A DNA stretch of 64,000 nucleotides from Escherichia coli (GCF_030013595.1 NZ_CP122768.1); one strand, 5' to 3'; shown: positions 9,541-61,086, counted from the stretch's first letter. Notes: generated by a model not told the origin, from the letters alone. Made by a program: numbers and translations.

Positions 9541-10309
<769 letters not shown>

Positions 10310-11090: not shown

Positions 11091-11098
11091 GGCGCTTT

Positions 11099-13413: not shown

Positions 13414-13542
13414 ATATACTCTAAATAATTCGAGTTGCAGGAAGGCGACAAGCGAGTGAATCCCCAGGAGCTTACATAAGTAAGTGACTGGGGTGAGCGA
13501 ACGCAGACGCAGCACATGCAACTTGAAGTATGACGAGTATAT
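13414..13542. repeat. ERIC (IRU) element
   Basis: Contains GTGAATCCCCAGGAGCTTACATAAGTAAGTGACTGGGGTGAGCG; terminal ATATACTC / GAGTATAT. Confidence 0.8.
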
Positions 13543-14976: not shown

Positions 14977-15051
14977 TTAAAATCCTGTTCTTTCTGTATG
15001 ACTCATACAGAAGTCCTTTATTGATTGTCCTTATCCTGACAACGAATTTTT

Positions 15052-16104
15052 TCAGGGAAGAAAAACTTCACCGGAAAATATTTTTCTGGTTGTCCGAATA
15101 ACAGATGCGCGTAACGTCGTGGCATCCTGACCTTCATTACTTAAATGAACGTCGAGCGCACCACTGGGGTGTTCAATATTGATATTGCCGTATCCTACAG
15201 AAGGGACGATTTGTCGGGTGACGGTGCCTTCCAATGCACAACTACTGGAAATGGCAATAGCACCGGTTATCGCCAGCGCGCGATGGCAAGAATGCGGCAT
15301 AAAATAACGCACATTAATTGCTCCGCCTTTCTGCGCTGGAGAAATAAGCACAGGTTTAGGGATAACCATATTACTGACATCGCCTAAGCCCATTGCTTTA
15401 CCCGCTTGTAGACGGATAGATTCAATGCGGGCTAATAATGCTTTGTCGGCATCCAGCTCCGCCGGTAATTCATAGCCTGTTTTTCCCAGATATTCAGCAG
15501 GAATAATGACAACTGGCATCGCCATATCGATACAGGTCACCGGGACATCGTCAAAATAATCAATCTGATTATCCGTCGGGAAGACTTTTCCGGTTTTGGT
15601 TCCGGCGGCATTCAGGAAAGTGAGCGCAACCGGTGCGGCAGTACCCGGTACGCCGTCAATTCTGGCGCAACCCTCGTACTCGACAACACCATTTGGCGTT
15701 TGCACATCAGCTTCGATGAACGTACCCGTATTGACGTTGCGGATACGTACGCGGGTAACTGGCGAAGTCGCTGCAATCAAACCATTTTCAATGGCGAATG
15801 CCCCAACGCCAGACAGCATATTGCCGCAGTTAGGCGTGGTATCGACACGTTGCTCATGGACGATAACTTGAGCAAACAGATAATCGACATCTGCACGCGG
15901 ATCGCTGGAGCGGCTAATAATGGCGACTTTACTGGTCAGCGGATTACCGCCGCCAATACCGTCAATTTCCAGATCGTTACCGGAACCCATAATTGCCATC
16001 AATATTTTATCGCGCTGCGTTTGATCTTCGGGTAGATGTTCCGCTAACAGGAACGCGCCCCTCGAGGTTCCACCTCGCATCATCACGCAGGGTATTTTTT
16101 TCAT
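15052..16104 (-). CDS. ybhH: YbhH, PrpF/AcnD-accessory family isomerase
   Basis: 350 aa. Confidence 0.85.
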   Translation of the reverse strand: MKKIPCVMMRGGTSRGAFLLAEHLPEDQTQRDKILMAIMGSGNDLEIDGIGGGNPLTSKVAIISRSSDPRADVDYLFAQVIVHEQRVDTTPNCGNMLSGVGAFAIENGLIAATSPVTRVRIRNVNTGTFIEADVQTPNGVVEYEGCARIDGVPGTAAPVALTFLNAAGTKTGKVFPTDNQIDYFDDVPVTCIDMAMPVVIIPAEYLGKTGYELPAELDADKALLARIESIRLQAGKAMGLGDVSNMVIPKPVLISPAQKGGAINVRYFMPHSCHRALAITGAIAISSSCALEGTVTRQIVPSVGYGNINIEHPSGALDVHLSNEGQDATTLRASVIRTTRKIFSGEVFLP

Positions 16105-43650: not shown

Positions 43651-45219
43651 TTAGCGTGCCGGCTGAGTAGTCGTGGAAGACTGCTCAAAGTGATAGCGAC
43701 CGGTTTTCAGGCTGCTTGGGCCGAGGCGTGCAAACTTGAACATTAAGAACAATTCTGCCACCAGGAACAGGGTATACAGGCCGCAAATCAGCACCATTGA
43801 GAAGATGAGATCGCCTGCGGTCAGTGACGAGTTCGCCACAGCTGTCGGCAGCACTTCACCGATAGCCCACGGTTGGCGGCCATATTCAGCCACAAACCAG
43901 CCCGCTTCTACAGCAATCCACGGCAGCGGAATACCGTACAGCGCGGCGCGCAGCAGCCATTTTTTCTCGCCAATGCGGTTGCGGATGACACTCCAGAAAG
44001 AGAGCGCGATGATTGCCAGCAGCAGGAAGCCACACGCCACCATGATACGGAACGCGAAGTACAGCGGCGCTACACGCGGAATGGAGTCTTTGGTTGCCTG
44101 TTGAATCTGCGCTTCAGTCGCATCAGCCACGTTTGGCGTATAGCGTTTCAGCAGCAGACCGTAACCGAGGTCTTTCTTCATGCTATTGAACTGGTCACGA
44201 ACCGCCTGGTCGGTAGAACCAGAACGCAGTTGCTCGAGCAGAGAGTACGCCTTCATCCCGTTACGAATGCGTTCTTCATGCTGCACCATCAGTTCTTTCA
44301 GGCCGATAACTGGAGTATCCACGGAACGCGTTGCAATGATACCCAGCGCGTAAGGGATCTGGATCGCAAATTTGTTCGTCTCCTCTTCCTGATCAGGAAT
44401 GCCGAACAGAGTAAAGGCAGCAGGCGCAGGTTGCGTTTCCCACTCGGCTTCAATAGCAGCCAGTTTGGTTTTCTGCACGTCGCCCATTTCGTAACCAGAT
44501 TCATCACCCAGAACAATAACAGACAGAACGGCAGCCATACCGAAGCTGGCAGCGATAGCAAAGGAGCGTTTAGCGAAGGCGAAGTCACGACCTTTCAGCA
44601 TATACCATGCGCTGATACCGAGGATGAACATCGCGCCAGTCACATAACCAGACGCTACAGTGTGAACGAATTTCACCTGAGCAACCGGGTTAAGCACCAG
44701 CTCGGAGAAGCTCACCATCTCCATACGCATAGTTTCAAAGTTGAAATCAGACGCGATTGGGTTTTGCATCCAGCCGTTCGCAACCAGAATCCACAGTGCG
44801 GACAGGTTTGAACCGAGCGCCACCAGCCAGGTGACACACATATGCTGAACTTTACCCAGACGATCCCAACCGAAGAAGAACAGACCTACAAAGGTGGATT
44901 CGAGGAAGAAGGCCATTAGACCTTCGATTGCCAGCGGCGCACCGAAGATATCCCCTACATAGTGGGAATAGTAAGACCAGTTAGTCCCGAACTGGAACTC
45001 CATGGTCAGACCGGTAGCCACACCCAGAGCGAAGTTGATACCAAACAACTTGCCCCAGAACTTGGTCATATCTTTATAAATCTGTTTGCCGGAAAGGACG
45101 TAGACCGTTTCCATAATGGCCAGCAGGAACGCCATACCGAGCGTCAGTGGCACAAAAAGGAAGTGGTACATCGCGGTCAAGGCAAACTGTAAGCGCGACA
45201 GTTCGACTATATCTAACAT
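43651..45219 (-). CDS. cydA: Cytochrome bd-I oxidase subunit I
   Basis: 522 aa from [15 protein letters not shown]. Confidence 0.95.
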
Positions 45220-45556
45220 CATGACTCCTTGCTCATCGCATGAAGACTCCGAGAGTGAACCCCGTTAGAAAGGGTCACACGCATGCCCCAATACAAAATT
45301 ATTTGCTCGCCTCTATCGTTGCCATTTCATCAAAAGAGGAAAAGACAATGATAAAAAAGTTACAAATATGTTAATGAATAAACCAAATTGATCCCGTAAT
45401 TATATTACGCCGCAAAATCCTTACAATAAACAGGTTTTTATTGAGCAAATTTGCATTTTTCGACAGTGATCAATTTATAGCGAAATTGTCACGATCTCAC
45501 CAATTTGATCTACGACAATTTATCGTGTTTTGCAGATTTTTTTCAAGAATTAAAAA

Positions 45557-45570
45557 TTGATTTATATCAA
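45557..45570 (-). promoter_or_regulatory. FNR-type site in cydA upstream regulatory region
   Basis: TTGATttatATCAA perfect FNR consensus. Confidence 0.45.
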
Positions 45571-46024
45571 AATCAACCAAATATGTTAATTATGTATAAA
45601 CCATAGATCATTGGTAATTTTATTGTTAATTTATTGTGAAATATTTATGCAACACAATTATTACAATGAAAAAGTATAGATAAAAAACCAGTGTTTTATT
45701 TAACAGAACCGCCCTATCCACTTTTTATAATACCAATTGATTAGAGTAGCCAATTTGTTGCTATTTTACATAACATATTTTTATCAAAGTTAATTGATTG
45801 TTGCCTTTATGAGCACCGGCCGTAAGCCCGTTATGTTATTGTTTCATTAGTAATAATCACTTAAATGTATCGATGAAACAGGTATGACTTAGCGGGAGTG
45901 ATTGTTTCTGAGTGAACAGAGACCACTTTCGCCTGATAAATGAAAAATGAGCGATTTTTGCAAGTTAGTTTTTCTATAGCCGAGTACGCTCAGCGCCTCG
46001 CTTGATTACAATGAGGTTGCTGCT

Positions 46025-46969
46025 ATGAGTCCTGATAATATCAGTTCTGCTGTCAATCGCTTCTCAGGTTGGCCATCTAATGATCCTCTAAAAACAGATA
46101 AAGAATCAATGACATCACCCATGACTGTGCAGGTAATAAAGATGATTGCCGCCATCCTTGACCCACATCGGATAGTCGTTGGAATCGATACACTTTATAC
46201 AACGCAGCGCGAAACATTTACCTCAGAGAGTCAACAGCTCATTGAATCAGCATTGCAAACACTTCATGTGATGAATTTAAATAACCTGGAAACAAATCTC
46301 GATGAGGAAGGTCACTATCTGGCTTTTGGATATAACGTTGACACTCCTGACAGAATAACCGTTTCTGCTTATAATGAAAAAAAGCCTGGCTGCTATGGCC
46401 AATGTCTTTTAATACAGGATGACGAAACAGACTTATTTAACCTGATAAAAGTTAAAATTTTTGAAGCCAGGCATAATTATGTCGCTCAATTGATGAGCGA
46501 TCCGGAATTTATGTTCAAATTTAGTTATAGCGCTCAACAAAATAGATTAGAACCTCATCTTCTGGTTCCCACTTATTTCCCTCTAAAAACAAACGAACCG
46601 GTTACGCAAGAGGATGTACTGTTACTTTATCGTTTCTTTAAAATGGATGGTGATTTTAATATATTAACATCAGATGAATACATGAGTATCATGACACCTC
46701 TAATGAAGTGTGAGCGTAGCATCCACGACCACAACAGGTATGTGACGGGCAAAGATCCCCTTCTTCTGGACTATCCTCCTTCTGGTAACCAGATATATTT
46801 CCATATTTTTCCTGACGAATCAGCAACACTAGTCCTTTATTTTTCAAACAATGACATTGAATGTTTCGTCTTTGAAAGAGATATTCCGAGCCAGTATCGC
46901 TTTTTCAAAATGTTTACCAATCTGGCACTGGTTATTGATCAGTTAACCGATGCCAATCAAATACTTTAA
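46025..46969 (+). CDS. Hypothetical protein, AT-rich accessory gene, no recognised domain
   Basis: 314-aa ORF in low-GC DNA where long random ORFs are unlikely; Ser/Pro/Asn-rich N-terminus. Confidence 0.6.
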   Translation: MSPDNISSAVNRFSGWPSNDPLKTDKESMTSPMTVQVIKMIAAILDPHRIVVGIDTLYTTQRETFTSESQQLIESALQTLHVMNLNNLETNLDEEGHYLAFGYNVDTPDRITVSAYNEKKPGCYGQCLLIQDDETDLFNLIKVKIFEARHNYVAQLMSDPEFMFKFSYSAQQNRLEPHLLVPTYFPLKTNEPVTQEDVLLLYRFFKMDGDFNILTSDEYMSIMTPLMKCERSIHDHNRYVTGKDPLLLDYPPSGNQIYFHIFPDESATLVLYFSNNDIECFVFERDIPSQYRFFKMFTNLALVIDQLTDANQIL

Positions 46970-47049
46970 TTTTTATATATTCCCTGTGGCAAATATTGCT
47001 AAACAATGCCCGGGGATTAATTTTTATTACTCACGGAAAGATTTAAATA

Positions 47050-47472
47050 ATGATCCCATCTCAAATCTCTTTCAACACCCTTCCTGTCAATGCAACATAC
47101 GCTTCAGAGACAACAGTTGACACACAAAAATTCTCTGACATCCTCTACTCAGCGGGGTGTTCCCTAAAGGATCTGGCTTATCTGAGCAGATGTCTGGCAT
47201 CAATACATCCGACTATCGCCAAAAACATTTATGAAACAGAAAATCTCAGCGATCAAAAATTACTACATATTGATTGCCGTAGTACAAATGAAATCAAGAT
47301 AAATATCTTTTTTGGTCAACAACGAGAAGGATTAATTGAAATTAGTTCTGACACAGTCATTTTTTCGATACTGTCTTCATTGATTGACTCCACCATTTCT
47401 AAATTTCAACACCAAAACCCCGTTAACGGTTCTGTAAATCCTGACCTATTGTATGAGGATTATACTGATTAA
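47050..47472 (+). CDS. Hypothetical protein, AT-rich accessory gene, no recognised domain
   Basis: 140-aa ORF 80 nt downstream of previous ORF, same strand, same low GC. Confidence 0.5.
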   Translation: MIPSQISFNTLPVNATYASETTVDTQKFSDILYSAGCSLKDLAYLSRCLASIHPTIAKNIYETENLSDQKLLHIDCRSTNEIKINIFFGQQREGLIEISSDTVIFSILSSLIDSTISKFQHQNPVNGSVNPDLLYEDYTD

Positions 47473-48019
47473 ATCCCTCCTGTCGCGAAAAATGGCCTGC
47501 GTTATTGCCAGACGTAATAAAACTTTTGATTAACGTTTCTCGTACTGGTAGCACCTTCATGTACTTTTCTTTTTTACGAAAAATCAAAAGAGCTAACAAA
47601 GGTCATAATTCGCATGAATCATTAATTATTTGTTATTTTCAACATTATTTTTACATTAAGCAGAGATGAATTGCAGTGAAATTCGACTTAATTTTTATGA
47701 AATGCATTTACTCATGGCTAAAGCCACGTCACAAAAATGCAAATTAGAAGTTGATCACAATTATCTCAATACATCAAATCAAGTTAATTTTAAAAATTTA
47801 ACATTCATGACACTAGTTGACATAACACACTGAATTAAAATGAGAATTTGGAAACACACTTTAAACAATCATTTCCCGAAAGACATTTTGAAAATAGATC
47901 AATTGCAACATTACGGTCAGATAAAGACACTCCTGTGATATTAAACCTGTGCCGTTATGAACGGCCATAAATACGACGTGTGTAACTTATTTTACTCTCT
48001 GTCTTACAAAGGATTACCC

Positions 48020-48469
48020 ATGAAGAAAGCAACACTTGTGATTGGCGTTATTGGCGCGGACTGCCATGCAGTAGGCAATAAAGTTCTGGACCGCGTTTTT
48101 AGCAACCATGGCTTCAGAGTCATTAATCTGGGCGTAATGGTCAGCCAGGACGAATATATTGATGCTGCCATTGAAACTGGCGCTGACGCGATTGTCGTCT
48201 CCTCTATCTATGGGCATGGCGATATCGACTGTCTGGGCATGCGCGAACGCTGCATCGAGCGTGGACTGGGTGACATCCTGCTCTATGTGGGCGGTAACCT
48301 GGTGGTCGGAAAACATGACTTCGCTGACGTGGAAACCAAATTTAAAGAGATGGGATTTGATCGCGTCTTTGCCCCAAGTCATGACTTAGAAGATGTTTGT
48401 CAGCTGATGGCCCACGATATCAACCAACGTCATGACGTTGATACTCGCATTCTTGAAGAGGCAATCTGA
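48020..48469 (+). CDS. Glutamate mutase sigma (S) subunit, B12-binding (methylaspartate mutase S chain)
   Basis: 149 aa from [21 protein letters not shown] (B12-binding DxHxxG motif). Confidence 0.85.
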
Positions 48470-49857
48470 TGCAAATCGTCTCTGTCGATATTGGATCGAC
48501 GTGGACCAAAGCAGCCCTCTTCGCCCGGGAGGGGGACGCGTTAACGTTGGTTAACCACGTACTGACCCCAACCACCACCCATCATCTGGCGAAGGGGTTT
48601 TTCTCCAGCCTGAACCTGGTGTTAAACGTAGATAATGCCCTCCCCCTGTTTAACAGCGGTGAGGTTACATTGAAGTATTCCTCCTCTGCCAAAGGTGGGC
48701 TGGCGGTTGCCGCAATGGGATTGGTGCCTTCTATCACCCTGGAAACCGCGAAAGTAACCGCTCACTCTGCGGGGGCTAAAATTGCGCAATATTACTCCTA
48801 CAAGCTGAACCGCCGTGATATCCAGGCACTGGAAGAAACGCAGCCCGATATTCTCTTGTTCACCGGCGGCACCGACGGCGGAGAAGAAAGCTACGGCCTG
48901 AATAACGCCCGTGTGCTGGCAGAATCCAAACTCGACTGCGCCATTATTTATGCCGGAAACCGGGATATTCAGGACGAAGTGCAGGAGATCCTAGGGCATA
49001 AAGACCTGACCATCGTCGACAACGTTCTGCCCGATCTTGACCATCCGAACCCTTTAGCCGCACGCCAGGCTATCTGCGACATATTCCTTAAACGCATCGT
49101 TAAAGGGAAAGGGCTGGATGTCGTTGTTGATAAAACAGGCGAAGAACCAATGCCGACACCATGGACGGTCTTTGAACTGGTTAAGGCAATCAGTAACGTC
49201 GATCACAGCTGGAAAGAGTTCATGCTGATCGACATGGGCGGCGCAACCACCGATGTCTATTCCGCCTGTGCCAACACGCTCTCGCCCGACACCGTTTTAC
49301 ACGGCGTACCGGAACCCTTCGTGAAACGGACGGTGGAAGGCGATCTGGGAATGCGCGTCTCGGCAATGGTGGTTGGTGAAAGTGCGAAAGAGTTAGTCAA
49401 TGTGAATTTTGCTCAGCAACCCGCACAGCTGGACGCTTTTTATCATTACCTCCGTCATCTAGTCGCTCATCCCGACTACTTACCCGCGAATGCAGAAGAA
49501 AAATATTTCGATACCGTCCTGGCCGGACTGTGTGTGGGTTATGCCACCGAAAGACATGCGGGCACCAAAAAAGAGGTCTGCACCTGCGTCGGCAATGTCG
49601 ATTTACAGATGGGACGTGACCTGACAACCGTGCGTAAAGTCGTCGGATCCGGCGGATGGCTCTCGCGTGCCAGTCAGTTCGATATGCATCACTGGTTGAA
49701 ATACCGCGAGTTAAACGACGACGGTAAACGCATTCTCTTACCGACCGAATTTGAATATTACCGCGATTCCCGGGGGCTATTACCACTGCTGGCAAACGTC
49801 GCCAGAGTCGATCCTCTGGCCGCCGCGCGCACCAGTATTCAATGCTTAACCCTATAA
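48469..49857 (+). CDS. Glutamate mutase accessory protein L (MutL/GlmL)
   Basis: 462 aa; sits between S and E subunits as in clostridial clusters. Confidence 0.75.
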   Translation: MQIVSVDIGSTWTKAALFAREGDALTLVNHVLTPTTTHHLAKGFFSSLNLVLNVDNALPLFNSGEVTLKYSSSAKGGLAVAAMGLVPSITLETAKVTAHSAGAKIAQYYSYKLNRRDIQALEETQPDILLFTGGTDGGEESYGLNNARVLAESKLDCAIIYAGNRDIQDEVQEILGHKDLTIVDNVLPDLDHPNPLAARQAICDIFLKRIVKGKGLDVVVDKTGEEPMPTPWTVFELVKAISNVDHSWKEFMLIDMGGATTDVYSACANTLSPDTVLHGVPEPFVKRTVEGDLGMRVSAMVVGESAKELVNVNFAQQPAQLDAFYHYLRHLVAHPDYLPANAEEKYFDTVLAGLCVGYATERHAGTKKEVCTCVGNVDLQMGRDLTTVRKVVGSGGWLSRASQFDMHHWLKYRELNDDGKRILLPTEFEYYRDSRGLLPLLANVARVDPLAAARTSIQCLTL

Positions 49858-49875
49858 CAATTAAGGCTGCAATCA

Positions 49876-51321
49876 ATGGAACTTCGAAATAAGAAATTAA
49901 CCCATGACGAATTCATGACCGAGCGGCAACAGGTACTGAAAACCTGGGAAACCGGCAAGGATGTTGAAAACTTTGAAGATGGCGTTAAATACCAACAAAC
50001 CATTCCTGAGCATAAACGCTTCTCTCTTGCGCTGTTGAAAGCAGACAAGGAAGGTAAAACCCTTAGCCAACCGCGCGCAGGTGTGGCGCTGATGGACGAA
50101 CACATCGAACTACTGAAAACACTACAAGAAGAGTGCGATCTGCTGCCGAGCACTATCGATGCATATACCCGTCTGAATCGGTACGAAGAAGCGGCTGTAG
50201 GGATTAAAAAATCCATCGAAGCCGGAACCTCTAAACTGAACGGTTTGCCGGTAGTTAACCATGGCGTCGCAGCTTGCCGTCGCCTCACCGAAACCCTGCA
50301 AAAACCGCTACAGATCCGCCACGGCACGCCAGATGCGCGTCTGCTGGCTGAAATCTCAATGGCCAGCGGCTTTACCAGTTATGAAGGCGGTGGCATTTCC
50401 TACAACATTCCGTATGCCAAACGCGTAACGCTGGAAAAATCGATCCGCGACTGGCAGTACTGCGACCGTTTAATGGGGATGTATGAAGAACACGGGATCC
50501 GCATCAACCGCGAACCGTTTGGCCCACTAACGGGTACGCTGATCCCGCCGTTTATCTCGCACTCTATCGCGATAATCGAAGGCTTGCTGGCGCTGGAACA
50601 GGGTGTGAAATCTATCACCGTTGGTTATGGACAGGTCGGCAGCCTGACGCAGGATGTTGCGGCGATCCAGTCTCTGCGTGAACTTGCACACGAATATTTT
50701 CAGAGCTATGGCTATACCGACTATGAATTAAGTACCGTGTTTCACCAGTGGATGGGCGGCTTTCCGGAAGACGAATCGAAAGCGTTCGCTATTATCTCCT
50801 GGGGCGCAGCCGTCGCGGGGATGTCTGGTGCCACCAAAGTCATCACCAAAAGTCCGCACGAAGCCTGGGGCATCCCGACTGCCGCTGCCAACATTCAGGG
50901 GCTGAAAGCCTCCCGCCAGATGCTCAACATGGTCAACGAGCAGAAATTCCCGCCGTGCCCTGCGGTTGAACTGGAAATTGAACTGATTAAGAGCGAGGTT
51001 CGCGCGGTACTGAATAAAGTGTTCGAACTGGGTAATGGTGATATTGCGCGCGGTACGGTGCTGGCATTTGAAGCGGGCGTACTGGATGTGCCGTTTGCGC
51101 CAGCCGCCTGCAACGCGGGCAAAATTCTTCCGGTCCGTGACAACACCGGCGCGATACGCGTACTGGAAGCCGGAGCCGTTCCATTGCCAAAAGATATTCT
51201 CGACCTCCACCACGATTACGTTGCTGAACGCGCACGCTTTGAAGGACGCCAACCGACATTCCAGATGGTTGTAGATGACATCAATGCTGTATCCCACAGT
51301 AAATTAATAGGAAGACCATAA
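49876..51321 (+). CDS. Glutamate mutase epsilon (E) subunit (methylaspartate mutase E chain)
   Basis: 481 aa TIM-barrel mutase. Confidence 0.85.
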   Translation: MELRNKKLTHDEFMTERQQVLKTWETGKDVENFEDGVKYQQTIPEHKRFSLALLKADKEGKTLSQPRAGVALMDEHIELLKTLQEECDLLPSTIDAYTRLNRYEEAAVGIKKSIEAGTSKLNGLPVVNHGVAACRRLTETLQKPLQIRHGTPDARLLAEISMASGFTSYEGGGISYNIPYAKRVTLEKSIRDWQYCDRLMGMYEEHGIRINREPFGPLTGTLIPPFISHSIAIIEGLLALEQGVKSITVGYGQVGSLTQDVAAIQSLRELAHEYFQSYGYTDYELSTVFHQWMGGFPEDESKAFAIISWGAAVAGMSGATKVITKSPHEAWGIPTAAANIQGLKASRQMLNMVNEQKFPPCPAVELEIELIKSEVRAVLNKVFELGNGDIARGTVLAFEAGVLDVPFAPAACNAGKILPVRDNTGAIRVLEAGAVPLPKDILDLHHDYVAERARFEGRQPTFQMVVDDINAVSHSKLIGRP

Positions 51322-52562
51322 TGAAAATAAAACAGGCTCTGTTCACCGCTGGCTACTCCTCATTCTATTTCGATGACCAGCAGGCGATAAAAAACGGAGC
51401 GGGTCATGACGGCTTTTTTTATACCGGGGAGCCAGTAACACAGGGGTTTAACGCCGTACGTCAGGCCGGGGAGTGCGTATCGGTACAGTTGATTCTGGAA
51501 AACGGCGCGGTCGCCGTAGGTGACTGTGCTGCCGTACAGTATTCCGGGGCAGGTGGTCGCGATCCACTGTTCCTCGCAGAGCACTTTATTCCGTTCCTCA
51601 ACGACCATATCAAGCCATTACTGGTAGGCCGCGATGTGGATGCTTTCCTGCCGAATGCCCGTTTCTTCGACAAATTGCGTATTGACGGCAACTTGCTACA
51701 TACCGCCGTGCGCTACGGATTATCACAGGCGCTGCTTGATGCTACCGCGCTGGCAACCGGCCGTCTGAAAACTGAAGTAGTTTGCGATGAATGGCAGTTG
51801 CCACGCGTGGCGGAATCCATTCCATTATTTGGTCAGAGCGGTGACGATCGATATATCGCCGTCGATAAGATGATCCTTAAGGGCATCGACGTGCTGCCCC
51901 ATGCACTGATTAATAACGTCGAAGAGAAACTAGGCTTTAAAGGTGAAAAACTGCGCGAATATGTCCGCTGGCTGTCGGATCGTATTCTGAGCAAGCGCAC
52001 CAGCGCACGCTACCACCCTACCCTGCACATCGATGTATACGGCACTATCGGTCTGATCTTCGATATGGATCCGCTTCGCTGTGCGCAATACATCGCCAGC
52101 CTGGAAAAAGAAGCGCAAGGCCTGCCGCTCTACATTGAAGGGCCGGTCGATGCCGGTAACAAGCCCGATCAAATTCGCCTGCTGACCGCGATTACCAAAG
52201 AGCTGACGCGCCTCGGTTCCGGCGTGAAAATTGTGGCCGATGAATGGTGTAACACCTACCAGGATATTGTTGATTTTACTGATGCCGCCAGTTGCCACAT
52301 GGTGCAAATCAAAACCCCGGATCTGGGCAGTATTCACAACATCGTCGATGCGGTTCTTTACTGCAACAGCCACAGCATGGAAGCGTACCAGGGCGGCACC
52401 TGCAATGAAACTGATGTCAGTGCCTGCACCTGTGTCCACGTCGCCCTTGCCGCTCGCCCTATGCGTATGCTGGTAAAGCCAGGGATGGGCTTTGACGAAG
52501 GCCTCGATATCGTCTTCAACGAAATGAATCGTACTATCGCGCTGTTGCAGGCTAAGGATTAA
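51321..52562 (+). CDS. 3-Methylaspartate ammonia-lyase
   Basis: 413 aa enolase-superfamily protein, MKIKQALFTAGYSSFYFDDQQAIKNGAGHDGF. Confidence 0.85.
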   Translation: MKIKQALFTAGYSSFYFDDQQAIKNGAGHDGFFYTGEPVTQGFNAVRQAGECVSVQLILENGAVAVGDCAAVQYSGAGGRDPLFLAEHFIPFLNDHIKPLLVGRDVDAFLPNARFFDKLRIDGNLLHTAVRYGLSQALLDATALATGRLKTEVVCDEWQLPRVAESIPLFGQSGDDRYIAVDKMILKGIDVLPHALINNVEEKLGFKGEKLREYVRWLSDRILSKRTSARYHPTLHIDVYGTIGLIFDMDPLRCAQYIASLEKEAQGLPLYIEGPVDAGNKPDQIRLLTAITKELTRLGSGVKIVADEWCNTYQDIVDFTDAASCHMVQIKTPDLGSIHNIVDAVLYCNSHSMEAYQGGTCNETDVSACTCVHVALAARPMRMLVKPGMGFDEGLDIVFNEMNRTIALLQAKD

Positions 52563-52565
52563 CAA

Positions 52566-53936
52566 ATGGCTCGTTCTTTTAAAGTCTTATCGCCAACGGC
52601 AATCCTCGGGTATGGATTCCCGGAAGAGAGCTTCCGTAAAGCGATGGCAGAATCGCCCGATCTGATCGCCGTTGATGCAGGCTCTTCCGATCCTGGCCCC
52701 CACTACCTCGGGGCGGGCAAACCGTTTACCGATCGCGCAGGGGTCAAGCGCGATCTGCGCTATATGATCACCGCAGGCGTGCAAAATAATATACCGGTGG
52801 TGATCGGAACGGCTGGCGGTTCTGGTGCCGCACCACACCTGGAGTGGTGCCGAGAAATAATTCATGAGATTGCCCGGGAAGAGCACCTCTCGTTCTCGAT
52901 GGCGTTGATCCCGGCAGACGTTGACAAAGCCATCGTCCACCAGGCGCTGGATAACGGCAAAATCACGGCGCTGGATTTTGTCCCGCCGTTAACCCACGAC
53001 GCGATTGACGAAAGTACGTATATCGTCGCGCAAATGGGCATCGAACCCTTCCAGCAGGCGCTGAAAGAAGGCGCGCAAGTGGTGCTGGGCGGGCGCGCTT
53101 ACGACCCGGCCTGCTTTGCTGCGCTACCGATCATGCAAGGCTTTGATGAAGGTCTGGCGCTGCATTGTGGGAAAATCCTTGAATGCGCGGCAATCGCCGC
53201 AACGCCCGGCTCAGGCTCTGACTGGGCGATGGGCATCATTGATGACAACGGCTTTACGCTGAAGACATTTAATCCGAAGCGTAAATTTACCGAAACGTCA
53301 GCGGCTGCACACACACTGTATGAGAAATCCGATCCCTACTTCCTGCCAGGACCTGGCGGCGTGTTGAACCTGAAAGACTGCACATTTAAAGCGGTCAATG
53401 ACGGCGAAGTGTACGTCAGCGGTTCTAAGCATGAAGAAACGCCGTATGCCCTGAAACTGGAAGGTGCGCGACGAGTGGGCTTCCGCTGTCTGACCATCGC
53501 AGGAACGCGCGACCCGATCATGATCGCCGGGATCGATAAAATCATCGATGAAGTCAAAACCAGCGTTTCGCGTAACCTGTCGCTCGACGATGACAGCATT
53601 CACATCAATTTCCACCTGTACGGCAAAAACGGGGTGATGGGCGACCATGAACCGATGCAAACTGCCGGGCATGAGCTGGGGATTGTCCTTGATGTAGTTG
53701 CACCGACCCAGGAAATTGCCAATAGCGTTTGCTCGCTGGTGCGCTCTACCATGCTGCACTACGGCTATGAAAACCGCATCGCTACCGCAGGCAATCTGGC
53801 GTTCCCGTTCTCCCCTTCTGATATCCAGGGCGGGCCGGTATACGAATTTTCCATATATCACCTGATTGAAGCCAACGACGCTCTGCGTTTTGATTTCCAT
53901 ATTGAACAGGTGACGCCAGAAGGAGTTCAGGCATGA
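52566..53936 (+). CDS. DUF1446 (AtuA-like) family protein
   Basis: 456 aa; family assignment from recalled sequence features. Confidence 0.6.
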   Translation: MARSFKVLSPTAILGYGFPEESFRKAMAESPDLIAVDAGSSDPGPHYLGAGKPFTDRAGVKRDLRYMITAGVQNNIPVVIGTAGGSGAAPHLEWCREIIHEIAREEHLSFSMALIPADVDKAIVHQALDNGKITALDFVPPLTHDAIDESTYIVAQMGIEPFQQALKEGAQVVLGGRAYDPACFAALPIMQGFDEGLALHCGKILECAAIAATPGSGSDWAMGIIDDNGFTLKTFNPKRKFTETSAAAHTLYEKSDPYFLPGPGGVLNLKDCTFKAVNDGEVYVSGSKHEETPYALKLEGARRVGFRCLTIAGTRDPIMIAGIDKIIDEVKTSVSRNLSLDDDSIHINFHLYGKNGVMGDHEPMQTAGHELGIVLDVVAPTQEIANSVCSLVRSTMLHYGYENRIATAGNLAFPFSPSDIQGGPVYEFSIYHLIEANDALRFDFHIEQVTPEGVQA

Positions 53937-54250
53937 AACAGTCAATTGTCTCACTGGCGCAAGTCATTCGTTCGAAAAATGCCGGACCTTACGAACTGGT
54001 TTTAGATATTTTATTTAAAACCAAAGAAAACTATGAGCGTGTCAAATCATCAGGGCAATTAACCCCAGAACTGATCGCGCGCTTATATCATGTTGAACCT
54101 GACTTTATTCATCGTATTGTCTGGTTTGATCCTTCTAACGCAGTAAAAATCGTCATGCCACGAGATATTATCTCCGGGAATGTAGGTGACAATGATGTCT
54201 ATGGTGCACAGCAACATGCACCTTTATTAAATATGAGTTTCGATTTGTAA
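53933..54250 (+). CDS. DUF4387 family protein, usual partner of DUF1446
   Basis: 105 aa, start overlaps upstream stop. Confidence 0.55.
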   Translation: MKQSIVSLAQVIRSKNAGPYELVLDILFKTKENYERVKSSGQLTPELIARLYHVEPDFIHRIVWFDPSNAVKIVMPRDIISGNVGDNDVYGAQQHAPLLNMSFDL

Positions 54251-54398
54251 AAATCCGAATACTTTTAGCCAACTGACATCCCGTCACTTATTGCAGTTCA
54301 ACACTTCAGCTATTTGTAAGGTTGTAATAGCAGGTAGATGCCTGAATCTCTATTCAGGCATCTACTTCTCCTGATTCTGATTTATCGCCGCGCACCTG

Positions 54399-55691
54399 AT
54401 GGAGGAAAAAATGAAGAAAATAAGTTTAACCACGATGATTCTTTTGGCGCTGGTACTTGGAATGATTATCGGCGTAGTGCTCAATAACACTGCTTCACCG
54501 GAAACCGCAAAACTCTATGCGCAAGAAATATCGATATTCACGACGATTTTCTTACGACTGATAAAAATGATTATCGCTCCGTTAGTGGTCTCTACCCTGG
54601 TGGTAGGTATAGCTAAAATGGGCGATGCCAAAGCCCTTGGTCGTATTTTTTCTAAAACACTCTTTTTATTTATTTGCGCCTCATTGCTGTCAATTGCCTT
54701 AGGCTTGATAACAGTAAATTTCTTCATGCCAGGCACAGGAATTAATTTTGTTGCACACGGAGCCGAAACCACCGGAGTGGTCGCGTCAGAACCCTTTACG
54801 CTAAAAGTATTTATTTCGCATGCTTTCCCCACCAGCATTGTCGATGCCATGGCGCACAATGAAATTTTGCAAATCGTGGTGTTCTCAATTTTCCTCGGCT
54901 GTAGCCTGACGGCGATTGGCGAGAAAGCCAGCGCCATCGTTCACGCCTTAGATTCGCTGGCACATGCCATGTTAAAGCTCACTGGCTACGTCATGCTCTT
55001 CGCTCCCCTGACCGTATTCGCTGCTATTTCAGCATTGATTGCTGAACGAGGACTGGCAGTTATGGTGAGCGCCGGGATCTTTATGGGTGAATTTTATTTC
55101 ACCATGTTATTACTTTGGGTGCTGCTTATCGGTCTGGCCATCGTTTATGTTGGCCCCTGCATCAGACGCCTGACCCGCGCCCTTTCGGAACCCGCCCTGC
55201 TGGCATTTACCACATCCAGTTCTGAAGCGGCTTTTCCAGGAACGCTTGAAAAACTGGAGCAATTTGGCGTTTCCCCCAAAATTGCCAGCTTTGTCTTACC
55301 CATTGGCTACTCATTTAATCTCGTTGGATCAATGGCCTACTGCTCCTTCGCCACAGTTTTCATCGCCCAGGCCTGCAATATCCATTTATCCATCGGTGAG
55401 CAAATCACCATGCTGTTGATCCTGATGTTGACCTCGAAAGGAATGGCTGGCGTACCACGCGCCTCAATGGTGGTTATCGCCGCCACGCTCAACCAGTTCA
55501 ATATTCCGGAAGCGGGGCTGATCTTGCTGATGGGCGTTGATCCGTTCCTTGATATGGGGCGTTCCGCGACAAACGTCATGAGCAACGCAATGGGCGCTGC
55601 GATGGTGAGTCGGTGGGAAGGCGAACATTTCGGCGAGGGCTGTCGGGGTAAAGCATTAAAACCCAATGAATCGAACGTTGCTCTGCCCTGA
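54399..55691 (+). CDS. Dicarboxylate/amino acid:cation symporter (DAACS; GltP/DctA family)
   Basis: 430 aa, polytopic, SDF-family motif TSKGMAGVP; start may be 54411. Confidence 0.8.
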   Translation: MEEKMKKISLTTMILLALVLGMIIGVVLNNTASPETAKLYAQEISIFTTIFLRLIKMIIAPLVVSTLVVGIAKMGDAKALGRIFSKTLFLFICASLLSIALGLITVNFFMPGTGINFVAHGAETTGVVASEPFTLKVFISHAFPTSIVDAMAHNEILQIVVFSIFLGCSLTAIGEKASAIVHALDSLAHAMLKLTGYVMLFAPLTVFAAISALIAERGLAVMVSAGIFMGEFYFTMLLLWVLLIGLAIVYVGPCIRRLTRALSEPALLAFTTSSSEAAFPGTLEKLEQFGVSPKIASFVLPIGYSFNLVGSMAYCSFATVFIAQACNIHLSIGEQITMLLILMLTSKGMAGVPRASMVVIAATLNQFNIPEAGLILLMGVDPFLDMGRSATNVMSNAMGAAMVSRWEGEHFGEGCRGKALKPNESNVALP

Positions 55692-55798
55692 GGGGGATCT
55701 TAAGCAATCAGAAGCCAATGACTACGCATTTTTATAAGCCGGATCATGAAGTTAGACGGCAATTAAGTAACACTAACGTTTAAGGTGAAAAGTGAAAT

Positions 55799-57451
55799 AT
55801 GTCAAAACCATTTATCTGGCAAGAACCGTTTCTACAAAATAAAGACGGTACAGAATATACATTAATTAGCGATCAGCATATTACAGTAACGGAATTAGAC
55901 GGCGAAGAAGTGATAAAAATCGCTCCTGAAGCATTAACGCTGCTTGCCCGGCAGGCATTTTATGAAGCCTCTTTTTTCTTACGTTCCGCTCATTTGCAAC
56001 AGGTCGCCAGCATTCTTAACGATCCGCAGGCCAGTAGTAATGATAAATACGTTGCGTTGCAGTTATTACGTAATGCTGAAGTCTCAGCAAAAGGGGTATT
56101 ACCCAACTGTCAGGATACCGGCACCGCAACTATTGTTGCCAGTAAAGGGCAACAGATATGGACGGGAGGTAACGACGCTGAAGCCTTAAGCAAAGGCATT
56201 TACAGTACTTTCCAGGAAAATAATCTGCGCTTTTCACAAAATGCGCCGCTGGATATGTATACCGAAGTCAATACGCAAACCAATCTCCCGGCGCAGATTG
56301 ATATCAGCGCTGTCGCTGGTAATGAGTACCATTTTCTCTGTGTTAATAAAGGGGGCGGCTCCGCCAATAAAGCCGCACTTTATCAGGAAACCAAATCCTT
56401 ATTGCAACCAGAAAAACTGACCGCATTTTTAATCGAAAAAATGAAATCGCTGGGCACCGCTGCCTGCCCGCCTTACCACATCGCCTTTGTCGTCGGAGGG
56501 CTTTCAGCCGATCAAACCTTAAAAGTTGCCAAGCTGGCCTCAACGAAATATTACGACAATTTGCCCACCAGCGGAAACGAGCAAGGACAAGCATTCCGTG
56601 ATATTGAGCTGGAAAAAGTGTTGCTCGAGGCCAGTCAGCAATTTGGTATTGGTGCGCAATTTGGAGGTAAATATTTCGCTCATGATATTCGCGTCATTCG
56701 TCTGCCGCGTCACGGTGGCTCCTGCCCGATAGCTATGGCGCTCTCCTGTTCTGCCGATCGCAATATCAAAGCAAAAATTAACAAGCACGGTATCTGGCTG
56801 GAAAAACTCGAACACAATCCGGGGCAATATATTCCAGCCTCACTGCGGGAAGAAAATCACGCGCAACATGTACAGCTGGATCTAAACCGTCCGTTGCGTG
56901 ACGTGATGCAGGATCTCGCCAGATTACCGGTAGGTACCCGCGTGTCGTTAAGTGGTCCCATCGTAGTGGCGCGCGATATCGCCCACGCCAAAATAAAAGC
57001 GCGGCTGGATAGCGGCGAACCGATGCCGGATTACCTGAAGCATCATATTGTCTATTACGCTGGCCCGGCGAAAACACCGGAGAACATGGCCTGCGGTTCA
57101 CTAGGTCCAACCACGGGCGGTCGAATGGACGGTTATGTCGATACCTTCCAGGCTGCTGGCGGCAGTCTGGTAATGTTATCGAAAGGTAACCGCAGCCAGC
57201 AGGTCACCGATGCCTGTCACAAACATGGCGGCTTCAATCTGGGAAGTATTGGCGGTGCAGCTGCGTTACTGGCGCAAGAATATGTCAAAAGTCTGCGTTG
57301 CCTGGAATACCCGGAGCTGGGTATGGAAGCGGTGTGGATGATGGAAGTGGAAAATCTGCCCGCATTCATCCTGGTAGATGATAAAGGCAATAATTTCTTT
57401 AGTCAGTTTGAGCAGCAACACCGCTGCGCCAGTTGCCCTGCGGGACATTAA
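55799..57451 (+). CDS. fumD: Class I fumarate hydratase paralog; likely mesaconase (FumD-like)
   Basis: 550 aa, Fe-S class I fumarase family; embedded in methylaspartate cluster. Confidence 0.8.
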
Positions 57452-57460
57452 GGAAAATGA

Positions 57461-58063
57461 ATGGAAGCGCGAATTTCAACTGAACGGCATGTGCAGCGCC
57501 AGCAGAAATTGAAGGAACAGGTCGATACGCGCATCGCGGCGGCGATAGAGAAAAAAGGGATTTTGATTGTTTTCACCGGCAATGGCAAAGGGAAATCCAC
57601 TGCCGCGTTTGGTACTGTGACGCGCGCGGTGGGTCATGGCAAAACGGTGGGGGTTGCGCAGTACATCAAGGGGCAATGGGACAACGGCGAATACAACCTT
57701 CTCCAGCCGCTGGGGGTTGAGTTTCATATTATGGGAACCGGTTTTACCTGGGAGACACAGAACCGGCAAGCGGATATCGACGCGGCGAAAGAGGTCTGGT
57801 CGGAAAGCAAACGGATGCTGGCTGACAAGCGTTACGACTTAGTGGTGCTTGATGAGCTGACCTATATGCTGGCTTACCATTATCTGGATACCGAAGAAGT
57901 GATCGCTTCTCTGCAAAACCGCCCGGCACAACAAAGTGTCATTGTCACCGGACGCGGTTGCCACAGTCAGATATTAAAAATGGCGGATACGGTCAGCGAA
58001 ATCCGCCCCGTCAAACATGCTTTTGATAACGGCATTCAGGCCCAGCCGGGTATCGACTGGTAA
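57461..58063 (+). CDS. Cob(I)alamin adenosyltransferase (CobA/BtuR family)
   Basis: 200 aa, P-loop FTGNGKGKSTAAFG. Confidence 0.85.
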   Translation: MEARISTERHVQRQQKLKEQVDTRIAAAIEKKGILIVFTGNGKGKSTAAFGTVTRAVGHGKTVGVAQYIKGQWDNGEYNLLQPLGVEFHIMGTGFTWETQNRQADIDAAKEVWSESKRMLADKRYDLVVLDELTYMLAYHYLDTEEVIASLQNRPAQQSVIVTGRGCHSQILKMADTVSEIRPVKHAFDNGIQAQPGIDW

Positions 58064-58065
58064 TA

Positions 58066-58096
58066 ACTGCGCCTGGCATCCCGCCAGGCGCAGGTT
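58066..58096. terminator. Bidirectional terminator between adenosyltransferase and LysR genes
   Basis: CTGCGCCTGGC-atcc-CGCCAGGCGCAG hairpin with flanking A/T runs. Confidence 0.5.
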
Positions 58097-59002
58097 TTAC
58101 ATCTCCTGCGGTACAACCGATTTCGCCAGCAACCATTCACGAAATTGCTGCAAGTGCGGTGAGTCAGACTTCTCTTCCTGCCACGTCATAATAAAACGAT
58201 TACCGGTACGAATAGGCACATCACAGGGGATCACCATATCGCCACTATCCAAATCATGTTGAATAGCGAACCGTGGTAACAGCGCCACGCCGAGATTCGA
58301 GCGCACGGCGGCAATCAGCATTGAAAGCAAATCGAAACGTGGTCCGTTGTTGACCAGCGGACTGCTAACGCCAGATAAGGCAAACCACTCTTCCCAGCCA
58401 GTAATACGGGTACTTTGATGCAGAAGTGGTAACTCTGTAAGCAGTTCTGCCACTGACAGTTTTTGATCGGACATTGCAAGCAAACTGCCGCTGCATACCG
58501 GCAAAATCTCCTCATAAAAGAGATATTCTACTTCCGCCCAGGGCGCGCAAAAATTTTCGCGCATAATGACAGCATCGTACTCCCGATTAAGAAAATCGCC
58601 GTTATTAGCTAAAGAGTGAATATTAACAATAATATCGGGATGTAACTTTGTGAATTCATGTAAATTTGGGATTAACCAGTGAGTACTAAACGTAGGATTA
58701 ACGGCAAGTTCAATAACCTGAACCGTAGGCTGCCAGGTCATAATGGTATTGGTATCGCGTTCCAGCTTATTTAATGTTTCTTTTACTATCCCCAGGTAAT
58801 ACTTCCCTGCATCATTAAGAAAAATGCGTTTTTTAGAGTGTGAAAATAACGGAGTATGTAAAAATTCCTCCAGCGCACTTACTTGTCTGAATACAGCACT
58901 TTGGGTTAACGCTAACTCCTCTGCCGCTCTGGTATAGCTTTCATGACGTGCGACGACCTCAAAAGTCACCAGCTGCTCCGTTTTAGGTATTTTTCCTCGC
59001 AT
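58097..59002 (-). CDS. LysR-family transcriptional regulator
   Basis: 301 aa from MRGKIPKTEQL; HTH TQSAVFRQVSALE. Confidence 0.8.
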   Translation of the reverse strand: MRGKIPKTEQLVTFEVVARHESYTRAAEELALTQSAVFRQVSALEEFLHTPLFSHSKKRIFLNDAGKYYLGIVKETLNKLERDTNTIMTWQPTVQVIELAVNPTFSTHWLIPNLHEFTKLHPDIIVNIHSLANNGDFLNREYDAVIMRENFCAPWAEVEYLFYEEILPVCSGSLLAMSDQKLSVAELLTELPLLHQSTRITGWEEWFALSGVSSPLVNNGPRFDLLSMLIAAVRSNLGVALLPRFAIQHDLDSGDMVIPCDVPIRTGNRFIMTWQEEKSDSPHLQQFREWLLAKSVVPQEM

Positions 59003-59213
59003 AATGCCGTCCGTGAAAAAATAACAATTCAAAAATTATTTTATAAAAAACAGTAGCACTAATGAATATCATAATTCAAATAAACAAACCAGTCAGCTAT
59101 ATGTCTAACCAGGAAAATAAAGTGACAATAATCCTAAAACAGGAATTTCACCTCAGTTATCCGCATGCAATACTTTAAAGCTATTATTGCAAGAATATTA
59201 TTCATATACATGA

Positions 59214-59341
59214 ATATACTCTAAATAAGTCAAGTTGCAGGAAGGGAACAAATAATGAATTTCCAGAAGCTTACATAAGTAAGTGACCTGGGTGAGCGAA
59301 CATCGATGCAGCACATGCAACTTGAATTATGACAAGTATAC
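59214..59341. repeat. ERIC-like element, divergent copy
   Basis: Shares ...GCTTACATAAGTAAGTGAC(C)TGGGTGAGCGAAC...GCAGCACATGCAACTTGAA with ERIC at 13414-13542. Confidence 0.65.
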
Positions 59342-59591
59342 AATGATAAATTTATATACCCTATGTTATATATTATCTATGTCCGGTTAAATTGAATGAG
59401 TCATGGCCTTAAAAGACTTCACAAAAGATAATTCCTCTTTAACAATAAGCCAGATTTACCACTTGTAAAACTTGCTATCGCCACATACACTACGCGCGTT
59501 TTCTTTCCCTTTTGCTGGCTGCTGACCGGAAAGACAAAATTACCCTCGCAATACAGGGGGTTGTTTAACGTCTATATTTCAGGACAGCGTT

Positions 59592-60989
59592 ATGCATCAT
59601 CTTTCAAGGCTTGATAAAGCCTTTCTGCGCAAAGGGATCCAACTTTCCCGCGCCAACAATATTGTTTCATTATCTCGTCCATCAGGTGCCAGTGCCCGCG
59701 TACTGCTGCCGGACGAACTGCCGCTGGAAGAAAAAGCAGTAACACAACTGCTTGATTTTGCAGAAGTGAAGCTACCAGACCACCCAGGTTATGTGCGCCA
59801 GACGTGCGCGACGCCAGATTTTCATCCCGGCAATGGAGTCCCCGTTGGCGCGGTGGTGGCCTCAACGCCGGATTTAGTCATTCCCGCCGCCATCGGCACC
59901 GATATTTCTTGTGGCATGCGGCTGCTGACGACCGGATTAACACTTGAGCAAGCCGAAGCGCATAAAGACGTCATCGCTCAGCGGTTAACGCAAGTGCTAC
60001 TGCAAAATGAGCGCGATGTTCCGTTATCCGCACAGGCGTTCACCGCGCTTTTTGATGGCGGACCGGCAGATTGCGTGTCGACCTTGCCATCAGCAGGTCT
60101 CTGGACACGCACGAATATCCCCCGAATGGTACAAGAGATTGACCGCTGCATTGGGCTTAACGAGCATAACAGTCATTCGCGTTATGCCCCACCCGCCCTG
60201 CTGGCAACGGACCGCGCATTACTCCGCGATCCTTGTCTGGGTACGCCGGGTTCAGGTAATCATTTTATTGAACTTCAGGTCGTTGATAGCGTGGTTGATC
60301 GCCATGTAGCCTGGCAACAAGGGCTGAAAACAGGCGATATTGTGGTGATGATCCACAGTGGATCGCGAGATGTTGGCTTTTACGTCGGAAGACGCTGGAT
60401 GGATCGCGCCCGTGCTGAATGGCCCACCGGACATAAACATCCACAAAGCGGGTTATATGGTCTGGCAGGCGGACTGGCGGAGGAATATCTACAAGCGATA
60501 GGAATGGCGGCGCGTTACGCGTGGTTAAATCGCGTCACAATTGCCGAAATGGTGCGCGTATGTCTCGCCAATCTCTTTCATCAGGACAATTCGCATCTGG
60601 TGGTGGATGTGCCGCATAACATCATCCTTCGCGAGCATGAAATGAATATTCATCGCAAAGGTGCAACACCGGCACGAGTGGGCGATCTGGCATTAATCCC
60701 CGGTTCAATGGGCGATTATTCGTGGCTTGCAGTCGGTTGCGGCAACCCGGAGTGGCTGTGGTCATGCAGTCACGGAGCAGGACGCAGCCAGCGTCGACAG
60801 GCCATGCGCTCAAGCGCGACTGAAGAGTCAACGCTGCCGTGGCAATGCGTCACATTGCGTGAAGAACGACGTCTTGAAGAAGCGCCAGCGGCTTATAAAG
60901 ATATTGGTCCGGTTATCGAAGCCCAACAAGAAGCCGGATTAATTCAGCCAGCGGTCAGATTTCGACCGTGGTTAACGTTTAAGGCATAA
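59592..60989 (+). CDS. RtcB-family RNA ligase homolog (orphan)
   Basis: 465 aa; motifs GTDISCGMRL, GSGNHFIEL, HSGSRDVG, SHGAGRS. Confidence 0.75.
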   Translation: MHHLSRLDKAFLRKGIQLSRANNIVSLSRPSGASARVLLPDELPLEEKAVTQLLDFAEVKLPDHPGYVRQTCATPDFHPGNGVPVGAVVASTPDLVIPAAIGTDISCGMRLLTTGLTLEQAEAHKDVIAQRLTQVLLQNERDVPLSAQAFTALFDGGPADCVSTLPSAGLWTRTNIPRMVQEIDRCIGLNEHNSHSRYAPPALLATDRALLRDPCLGTPGSGNHFIELQVVDSVVDRHVAWQQGLKTGDIVVMIHSGSRDVGFYVGRRWMDRARAEWPTGHKHPQSGLYGLAGGLAEEYLQAIGMAARYAWLNRVTIAEMVRVCLANLFHQDNSHLVVDVPHNIILREHEMNIHRKGATPARVGDLALIPGSMGDYSWLAVGCGNPEWLWSCSHGAGRSQRRQAMRSSATEESTLPWQCVTLREERRLEEAPAAYKDIGPVIEAQQEAGLIQPAVRFRPWLTFKA

Positions 60990-61086
60990 AAAAGGCCATC
61001 ATACGATGGCCAACCATGTCGAAACCGACAGCCCTTCGCCATTCCTGTAGAGGGAAGCGGCGAGGGCTATTTCTTATTACAGATAT
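60987..61086 (-). ncRNA. sdhX: sucD 3'UTR with intrinsic terminator; SdhX (RybD) sRNA locus
   Basis: Minus-strand GGCCAUCGUAUGAUGGCC hairpin plus U6 directly downstream of sucD stop. Confidence 0.55.

Follow-up and report, generated by a model that had tools for sequence, protein, structure and literature searches.

Whether Escherichia coli can gain pyruvate, acetate, and ammonia from glutamate by way of 3-methylaspartate is the question raised by a gene cluster in the sequence NZ_CP122768.1 (GCF_030013595.1), and in particular whether that cluster encodes the whole methylaspartate route. We analyzed a 64,000-nt stretch of this sequence (the window, whose positions serve as coordinates throughout), in which an open reading frame (ORF) listing places nine intact, codirectional genes on the plus strand between 48020 and 58063, in the order glmS–glmL–glmE–mal–cmlA–cmlB–symporter–fumD–cobA, followed by a terminator and a convergent LysR gene. 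An initial annotation of the window had proposed a self-contained, vitamin B12-dependent glutamate fermentation module at 47957 to 58063; the genes lie where it put them, except that glmS begins at 48020, and cmlA and cmlB went unmentioned. We consider it probable (roughly 0.8) that the locus is an accessory catabolic operon encoding the entire route from glutamate to pyruvate, acetate, and ammonia. The cluster itself has already been published (Kronen and Berg, 2015, PLoS One; PMC4682846), so that the initial annotation was correct rather than new. Families were assigned with NCBIfam profile models and their curated cut-offs (scores in bits), and the genes of the operon are as follows:

48020-48469, plus strand: glmS, B12-binding small subunit of glutamate (methylaspartate) mutase; NF002612, 253 bits (cut-off 110)
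48469-49857, plus strand: glmL (mutL), accessory/reactivating protein of the mutase; TIGR01319, 887 bits (cut-off 204), and NF040745, 510 bits (cut-off 475)
49876-51321, plus strand: glmE, catalytic large subunit of the mutase; TIGR01503, 865 bits (cut-off 390)
51321-52562, plus strand: mal, 3-methylaspartate ammonia-lyase; TIGR01502, 541 bits (cut-off 286)
52566-53936, plus strand: cmlA, predicted large subunit of citramalate lyase (DUF1446/AtuA family), 456 amino acids (aa); PDB match
53933-54250, plus strand: cmlB, predicted small subunit of citramalate lyase (DUF4387), 105 aa, overlapping cmlA by 4 nt; PDB match
54411-55691, plus strand: DAACS-family symporter, GltP-like, putative importer of glutamate/acidic amino acids; 40% identical to K-12 GltP and 34% to DctA
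55799-57451, plus strand: fumD, class I iron-sulfur fumarase paralogue and predicted mesaconase (mesaconate to (S)-citramalate); NF011921, 1286 bits (cut-off 1060)
57461-58063, plus strand: cobA/cobO, CobA/BtuR-type ATP:cob(I)alamin adenosyltransferase; TIGR00708 (cob(I)yrinic acid a,c-diamide adenosyltransferase), 247 bits (cut-off 168), full length

The first two enzymes of the route, the B12-dependent glutamate mutase and methylaspartase of the initial annotation, are borne out by full-length matches above the curated cut-offs. GlmS also exceeds the cut-off of TIGR01501 (glutamate mutase small subunit) and carries the B12-binding DxHxxG motif as DCHAVG at residues 14 to 19, and Mal gives a full-length, 895-bit match to the 3-methylaspartate ammonia-lyase structures PDB 1KKO/1KKR. 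Frameshifts in the mutase subunits, which would have spoken against the module, are not seen in this sequence, where all ORFs are intact. The start of glmS at 48020, rather than 47957, is indicated by an AAGGA ribosome-binding site upstream of that ATG, by a start context kept in 46 related loci, by a family match that begins only at residue 22 of the longer ORF, and by the RefSeq annotation; the symporter, likewise, probably starts at 54411 (as in RefSeq) rather than at 54399. From glmS to cmlB the intergenic gaps measure -4 to +18 nt, a spacing that shows these six genes to be translationally coupled, and gaps of 160 nt, 107 nt, and 9 nt precede the symporter gene, fumD, and cobA, respectively. 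The operon has a guanine-plus-cytosine (GC) content of 51%, versus 32% in the 547-bp intergenic region (47473-48019) before it.

The step that decides whether the route is complete is the cleavage of citramalate. Kronen and Berg listed GlmS, MutL, GlmE, Mal, a DUF1446 protein of unknown function, GltP, FumD, CobA, and a LysR regulator, and they located no citramalate lyase and found no condition for expression of the genes (PMC4682846). This gap in the 2015 account is filled by proteins already in the PDB: CmlA of the window is identical at 417 of 456 residues (91%) to chain A of 9ERQ/9EVF, “Citramalate lyase, subunit A (cmlA),” and CmlB is near-identical to chain B of 9ERQ, “Citramalate lyase, subunit B (cmlB)” (E = 5e-57, 104 of 105 residues). 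Neither ORF matched an NCBIfam model, and RefSeq labels the two products “acyclic terpene utilization AtuA family protein” (DUF1446) and DUF4387. Judged by sequence only, then, cmlAB would encode a citramalate lyase that yields pyruvate and acetate, an activity that we take over from the PDB and the literature: an engineered E. coli grew on mesaconate only when it carried Raoultella planticola CmlAB on a plasmid, and carbon label from mesaconate reached acetyl-CoA in those cells (bioRxiv 10.64898/2026.01.16.699985).

Gene order across genomes independently backs this role, since it is kept across phyla. In a scan of one genome per species, which returned 57 loci, the order glmS–glmL–glmE–mal–cmlA–cmlB is maintained in essentially all loci with enough flanking sequence, and cmlA lies directly 3′ of mal in 50 or more loci from several phyla. 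Among the Enterobacterales, the core occurs in Escherichia, Citrobacter, Klebsiella, Salmonella, Enterobacter, Lelliottia, Pluralibacter, Buttiauxella, Pseudescherichia, Yersinia, Hafnia, and Budvicia; outside this order, all six genes are present in Aromatoleum, Azoarcus, Telmatospirillum, Desulfotomaculum, and one Dictyoglomaceae genome. One Bacillota genome places mal after cmlB rather than before cmlA, and in Prevotella nigrescens the same six genes are followed by a two-subunit class I fumarase. With cmlAB recognized as the probable source of the lyase step, the route from glutamate to pyruvate is closed on paper.

Two side observations concern this gene pair. The GC content of cmlB (39%) is far from that of the overlapping cmlA (55%) and of the operon (51%), and its protein is 100% identical to that of O157:H7. 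A Klebsiella pneumoniae plasmid (NZ_CP138692, locus positions 5989-13323) carries an AtuA-family/DUF4387 pair with 56% identity to CmlA and 53% to CmlB; accompanying it are genes for two aldehyde dehydrogenases, two further dehydrogenases, and one fumarate hydratase, together with a divergent LysR gene and with no mutase or methylaspartase genes at the locus, which suggests a second pathway built on the CmlAB-type lyase family.

Citramalate itself would be supplied by FumD. Its score with NF011921 stands apart from those with other class I models, where it falls below the cut-offs (926 versus 1105 for the FumA model and 924 versus 1094 for NF011920), and it is identical at 545 of 550 residues (99%) to FumD of O157:H7 strain 86-24. 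The mesaconase role that the initial annotation had drawn from the literature is right, because the window protein differs at only 5 of 550 residues from an O157:H7 FumD; the activity is adopted from the published kinetics of the purified O157:H7 enzyme, whose kcat/Km is 2e6 M-1 s-1 for mesaconate versus 7.5e5 M-1 s-1 for fumarate (PMC4682846).

Glutamate would enter through the symporter, a protein that does not reach the cut-off of either nearest model (305 versus 638 bits for GltP, NF008440; 313 versus 513 bits for DctA). Its transmembrane segment 8 (TM8) reads LDMGRSATN, compared with LDMARTALN in GltP and MSEARALTN in DctA, and this motif, with the Asp and Arg of GltP, is conserved in 49 orthologues. 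From GltPh structures we take the TM8 Asp to hold the amino group of the substrate and the Arg to hold the distal (side-chain) carboxylate, and the presence of both residues therefore favors an acidic amino acid over a plain dicarboxylate. The probable substrate is thus an acidic amino acid, for instance glutamate or methylaspartate, in keeping with the initial annotation. Segment TM7 carries NLVG (kept in 48 of 52 orthologues) in place of the NLDG of GltP, DctA, and other family members; by these features the symporter would belong to a distinct, uncharacterized DAACS subfamily, and its ion coupling may differ from that of NLDG members.

The terminal adenosyltransferase gene, also recognized in the initial annotation, matches its family model over the full length, retains the P-loop GNGKGKST, and encodes a protein 67% identical to K-12 BtuR, which marks it as an extra paralogue dedicated to the island. 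E. coli is unable to make the corrin ring, so B12 must be imported, and to this extent the module depends on outside supply; nor would it be self-contained by the gene list of the initial annotation, which held no citramalate lyase, and only the overlooked cmlAB make the description apt. Accessory genes around the core vary: Klebsiella, Citrobacter, and Salmonella versions carry an added glutaminase gene, some Escherichia species have the cluster without the symporter gene and cobA, and Yersinia has fumD and the regulator gene upstream, together with a uroporphyrinogen methyltransferase gene.

Put together, the operon would work in five steps. (i) The GltP-like symporter would take up glutamate. 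(ii) The adenosylcobalamin-dependent mutase GlmS plus GlmE would rearrange it to (2S,3S)-3-methylaspartate, with GlmL keeping the mutase active and the CobA-type adenosyltransferase charging imported cobalamin. (iii) Methylaspartate ammonia-lyase would release ammonia to give mesaconate, (iv) which FumD would hydrate to (S)-citramalate, and (v) the two-subunit CmlAB would split this into pyruvate and acetate. By textbook metabolism, with pyruvate formate-lyase and acetate kinase acting downstream, the whole could in principle be redox neutral and yield one ATP per glutamate. Transcription would begin about 80 nt upstream of glmS at a weak promoter that is off without an activator, for which the linked LysR protein is the likeliest candidate. 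What the sequence shows is which genes are present, that they are intact, and how they are ordered, conserved, and kept under purifying selection; the transport substrate, the promoter with its activator, and the running of the pathway in E. coli in vivo are inferred.

The operon occupies an island of approximately 15.4 kb between cydA and sucD, a slot that holds mngR–mngA–mngB (mngRAB) in K-12; homology to K-12 stops near 45620 (the cydA upstream region) and resumes near 60990 (the sucD/sdhX terminator). The same island sits at this position in O157:H7 strain 86-24, its proteins being 98 to 100% identical, and the window region is 99.9% identical to that of a pig E. coli isolate. We found the cluster in 1,135 of 5,426 complete E. 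coli genomes, where it is nearly always chromosomal, and 1,117 genomes match the region at 95% identity or more across 80% or more of its length; Kronen and Berg reported the cluster from 26.5% of the E. coli strains and, within O157:H7, from 90.6% (PMC4682846). About one-fifth of E. coli strains would thereby be genetically equipped to obtain pyruvate, acetate, and ammonia from glutamate, which is plentiful in the gut, if B12 is available. The cluster is also mobile, as it lies whole, together with a glutaminase gene, between transposase genes on a 416-kb IncFIB conjugative plasmid of Salmonella Macclesfield (NZ_CP022118, locus positions 4458-15602), near an HdeA/HdeB acid-stress chaperone gene. 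Ratios of nonsynonymous to synonymous substitution (dN/dS) are 0.02 to 0.18 versus O157:H7 for all nine genes and the regulator and 0.03 to 0.07 versus Klebsiella michiganensis; intact genes under such strong purifying selection argue against a decaying relic.

How the operon is switched on was approached through its upstream region. The initial annotation had read the long AT-rich leader (47473-48019) as a sign of complex regulation. The leader is neither a riboswitch nor a long regulatory RNA, and most of the 547-bp intergenic region is not conserved across genera, in which only a compact module of about 75 bp is kept. A B12 riboswitch or other known RNA leader was ruled out by an Rfam scan of 45000-61000, leader included, that gave no match at E ≤ 1. 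We compared 48 distinct upstream sequences from about 12 genera, anchored on a dyad within the module, and expressed conservation as mean information content, against 0.4 to 0.7 bits per position in the flanks of the module. The module and the elements at the other end of the operon are as follows:

47872-47944, plus strand: conserved promoter/operator module upstream of glmS, from the anchored comparison; predicted promoter
47872-47887, plus strand: upstream block, 1.26 bits per position
47889-47905, plus strand: invariant 17-nt dyad TGAAAATAGATCAATTG, TGA-N7-TCA, 1.89 bits per position
47903-47908, plus strand: -35-like TTGCAA, followed by a 17-nt spacer
47926-47931, plus strand: -10-like GACACT, 1.60 bits per position; the A, A, and T of nAnAnT are invariant (48 of 48)
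47940-47944, plus strand: conserved ATTAA, part of the module
58067-58093, plus strand: terminator-like hairpin with an 11-bp stem (9 G-C pairs), between the convergent cobA and LysR genes (consensus scan)
58097-59002, minus strand: LysR-type regulator (GcvA-like), candidate activator; GcvA subfamily model, 220 bits, below the cut-off of 288

About 38 loci, drawn from nine genera or more, share the 17-mer TGAAAATAGATCAATTG without change, and in Yersinia, Hafnia, and Budvicia the dyad reads TGA-N7-TCAATTG. It occurs once per locus of approximately 20 kb, always upstream of glmS, with the sole exception of three Yersinia loci that have a second copy. (That copy, TGA-N7-TCAATTG on the minus strand between the symporter gene and gltX, at about 13330 to 13810 of the loci of three Yersinia species, was judged uninformative.) Synonymous sites of the adjacent genes are saturated between the compared genera (dS > 1), and the conservation of the dyad and promoter is therefore not inherited similarity.

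We infer that TTG at 47903-47905 belongs to the -35 element and nAnAnT to a weak -10 element, which would place the transcription start at about 47938, give a 5′ untranslated region (UTR) of about 80 nt, and center the dyad near -42, as at activator-dependent promoters. The proposed promoter matches at about 7 of 12 positions and lies below the thresholds of the consensus scan, which found no canonical sigma-70 promoter on the plus strand in 47473-48019. Other candidates were set aside: FNR and CRP sites by eye (these are TGA-N6-TCA, and the dyad is TGA-N7-TCA), a sigma-54 promoter by eye (no GG 12 nt upstream of GC), and an integration host factor (IHF) site (WATCAANNNNTTR), which is matched only in part and whose TTR portion is not conserved. 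TATTAA at 47939-47944 is less likely as a -10 element, as it lacks the final T, whereas nAnAnT at 47926-47931 is kept in all 48 sequences. A short perfect hairpin in the predicted glmS 5′ UTR (GCCGTT-ATG-AACGGC, 47950-47965) is present in Escherichia and not conserved in other genera.

Since the promoter is weak and its -35 element is overlapped by the invariant dyad, the operon would be off unless an activator binds, which would fit the silence of the cluster reported by Kronen and Berg. Most Enterobacterales loci have the LysR gene linked to the cluster, TGA-N7-TCA conforms to the T-N11-A rule for LysR sites, and in Aromatoleum and Azoarcus a TGC-N7-GCA box lies between glmS and a divergent LysR gene of 45% identity. 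On the other hand, the dyad center falls near -42, and in three genera no LysR homologue lies within 10 kb; the latter, with an alphaproteobacterial locus that shares CTGAAAATAGATC, makes a factor other than LysR possible. We therefore hold only tentatively that the dyad is the operator of a dedicated activator, the GcvA-like LysR protein being the probable one, whose ligand would be the missing signal for turning on B12-dependent glutamate catabolism in O157:H7 and other gut enterobacteria. If this were true, that ligand would explain the silence in every laboratory test and open a role in gut colonization to study; meanwhile, with a conserved operator and a predicted promoter in view, the timing and mechanism of operon induction become a testable question.

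Several points weigh against a complete glutamate-degrading operon. O157:H7 strain ATCC 700728 showed no methylaspartase activity with or without cobalamins, and with or without cobalamins it neither grew anaerobically on glutamate nor was stimulated in its growth by it (Kronen and Berg; PMC4682846). Literature searches gave no primary biochemical paper on CmlAB, whose assignment comes from PDB molecule names and one preprint; the symporter falls below the GltP and DctA cut-offs and is without the conserved TM7 Asp; and the genera that keep the dyad with no LysR homologue within 10 kb are those of Hafnia, Budvicia, and strain B14 (the last with a one-base variant). Three other readings were considered.

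The one that survives best has the operon serve another main substrate or direction, for example the uptake and use of environmental 3-methylaspartate, mesaconate, or citramalate, or biosynthesis by the reverse reactions. Every enzyme of the route is either reversible or promiscuous (FumD hydrates fumarate as well), the symporter falls in an uncharacterized subfamily, and the glutaminase added in Klebsiella, Citrobacter, and Salmonella hints at flexible inputs. We nonetheless regard this as unlikely: only a pathway that starts (or finishes) with glutamate requires a mutase, GlmL, and a dedicated adenosyltransferase, the same glutaminase feeds glutamate into the pathway, and the symporter has the Asp of GltP that DctA is missing and that presumably binds the amino group, as in solved homologues.

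In a second reading, the pathway ends at (S)-citramalate or mesaconate, which would be secreted to act on the host or on competitors, and the DUF1446/DUF4387 pair does something else. Kronen and Berg raised such a secreted end product, as E. coli extracts had no citramalate lyase activity (PMC4682846), but those extracts came from cells not expressing the cluster at all. The pair, moreover, matches a deposited citramalate lyase (91% identity for the large subunit, near-identity for the small one), CmlAB serves as a citramalate lyase in vivo in the preprint, and cmlAB are both translationally coupled to mal and coinherited with the glm genes and mal across phyla, all of which leaves a secreted end product with little to recommend it. 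Finally, that the island is cryptic in E. coli, left over from horizontal transfer, permanently silent, and now without function, would agree with the lack of expression or growth phenotype in ATCC 700728 and with AT-rich flanks typical of silenced foreign DNA, but it is very improbable given nine intact ORFs, the near-identity of the region among 1,117 genomes, the low dN/dS both within E. coli and versus Klebsiella, an operator that is invariant while adjoining bases are randomized, and the methylaspartase activity reported from other enterobacteria (Kato and Asano 1997, as cited in PMC4682846). A catabolic operon for the whole route from glutamate is thus our preferred reading.

The rest of the island holds genes of other kinds. 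Two low-GC (37%) ORFs, at 46025-46969 (314 aa) and 47050-47472 (140 aa), lie between cydA and the operon; they had no match in NCBIfam, Pfam, or PADLOC, accompany the island in E. coli (1,135 genomes), find only a diverged, partial match in a related Escherichia species, and are absent from other genera. Their dN/dS of 0.2 to 0.7 is far above that of the operon genes. At the opposite end, an RtcB-family gene (59592-60989, 465 aa) and the LysR gene diverge from a 590-bp spacer of 34% GC. The first ~210 residues of the RtcB-family product match no model, and its score is below the family cut-offs; no RtcA or RtcR gene adjoins it. Complete copies of the gene occur in 289 E. coli genomes and partial ones in another 400 or so, and only its 3′ end is found in O157:H7.

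Among known systems, the haloarchaeal methylaspartate cycle converts mesaconate to mesaconyl-coenzyme A (CoA) for the assimilation of acetate (PMC4682846); the window locus has no CoA-transferase or mesaconyl-CoA hydratase gene and would instead use a mesaconase and a lyase. The clusters of Clostridium tetanomorphum and Clostridium tetani are alike in mutase components S, L, and E, in methylaspartase, in a class I fumarase-type mesaconase, and in the cleavage of citramalate to pyruvate and acetate. They differ in that the clostridial mesaconase has two subunits (MesAB), unlike FumD, and in that citramalate is cleaved in clostridia by a CitDEF-like complex that CitCXG must activate, in contrast with the unrelated CmlAB (DUF1446 plus DUF4387) predicted here. 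The clostridial cluster also has a GntR regulator and neither transporter nor adenosyltransferase, whereas the window locus has a LysR regulator, a symporter, and CobA (PMC4682846).

CmlAB of Raoultella planticola (PDB 9ERQ and 9EVF) resembles the window proteins over all 456 residues of CmlA (91%) and 104 of the 105 residues of CmlB; it belongs to another genus, from which the E. coli function is assigned by likeness. Closest of all is the “glutamate fermentation gene cluster” of O157:H7 and other Enterobacteriaceae (PMC4682846, Fig. 5), which matches the window in genes, order, and chromosomal slot, although the window strain has the full RtcB-family gene beside the regulator where O157 has a remnant. 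In the 2015 account of that cluster, DUF1446 had no assigned function and what became of citramalate was unclear; here, the same gene is read as cmlA, for the probable large lyase subunit. To that account we make modest additions, namely, the identification of cmlAB in the window, corrected gene starts, the boundaries of the island, a core conserved across phyla, and a conserved operator and putative promoter.

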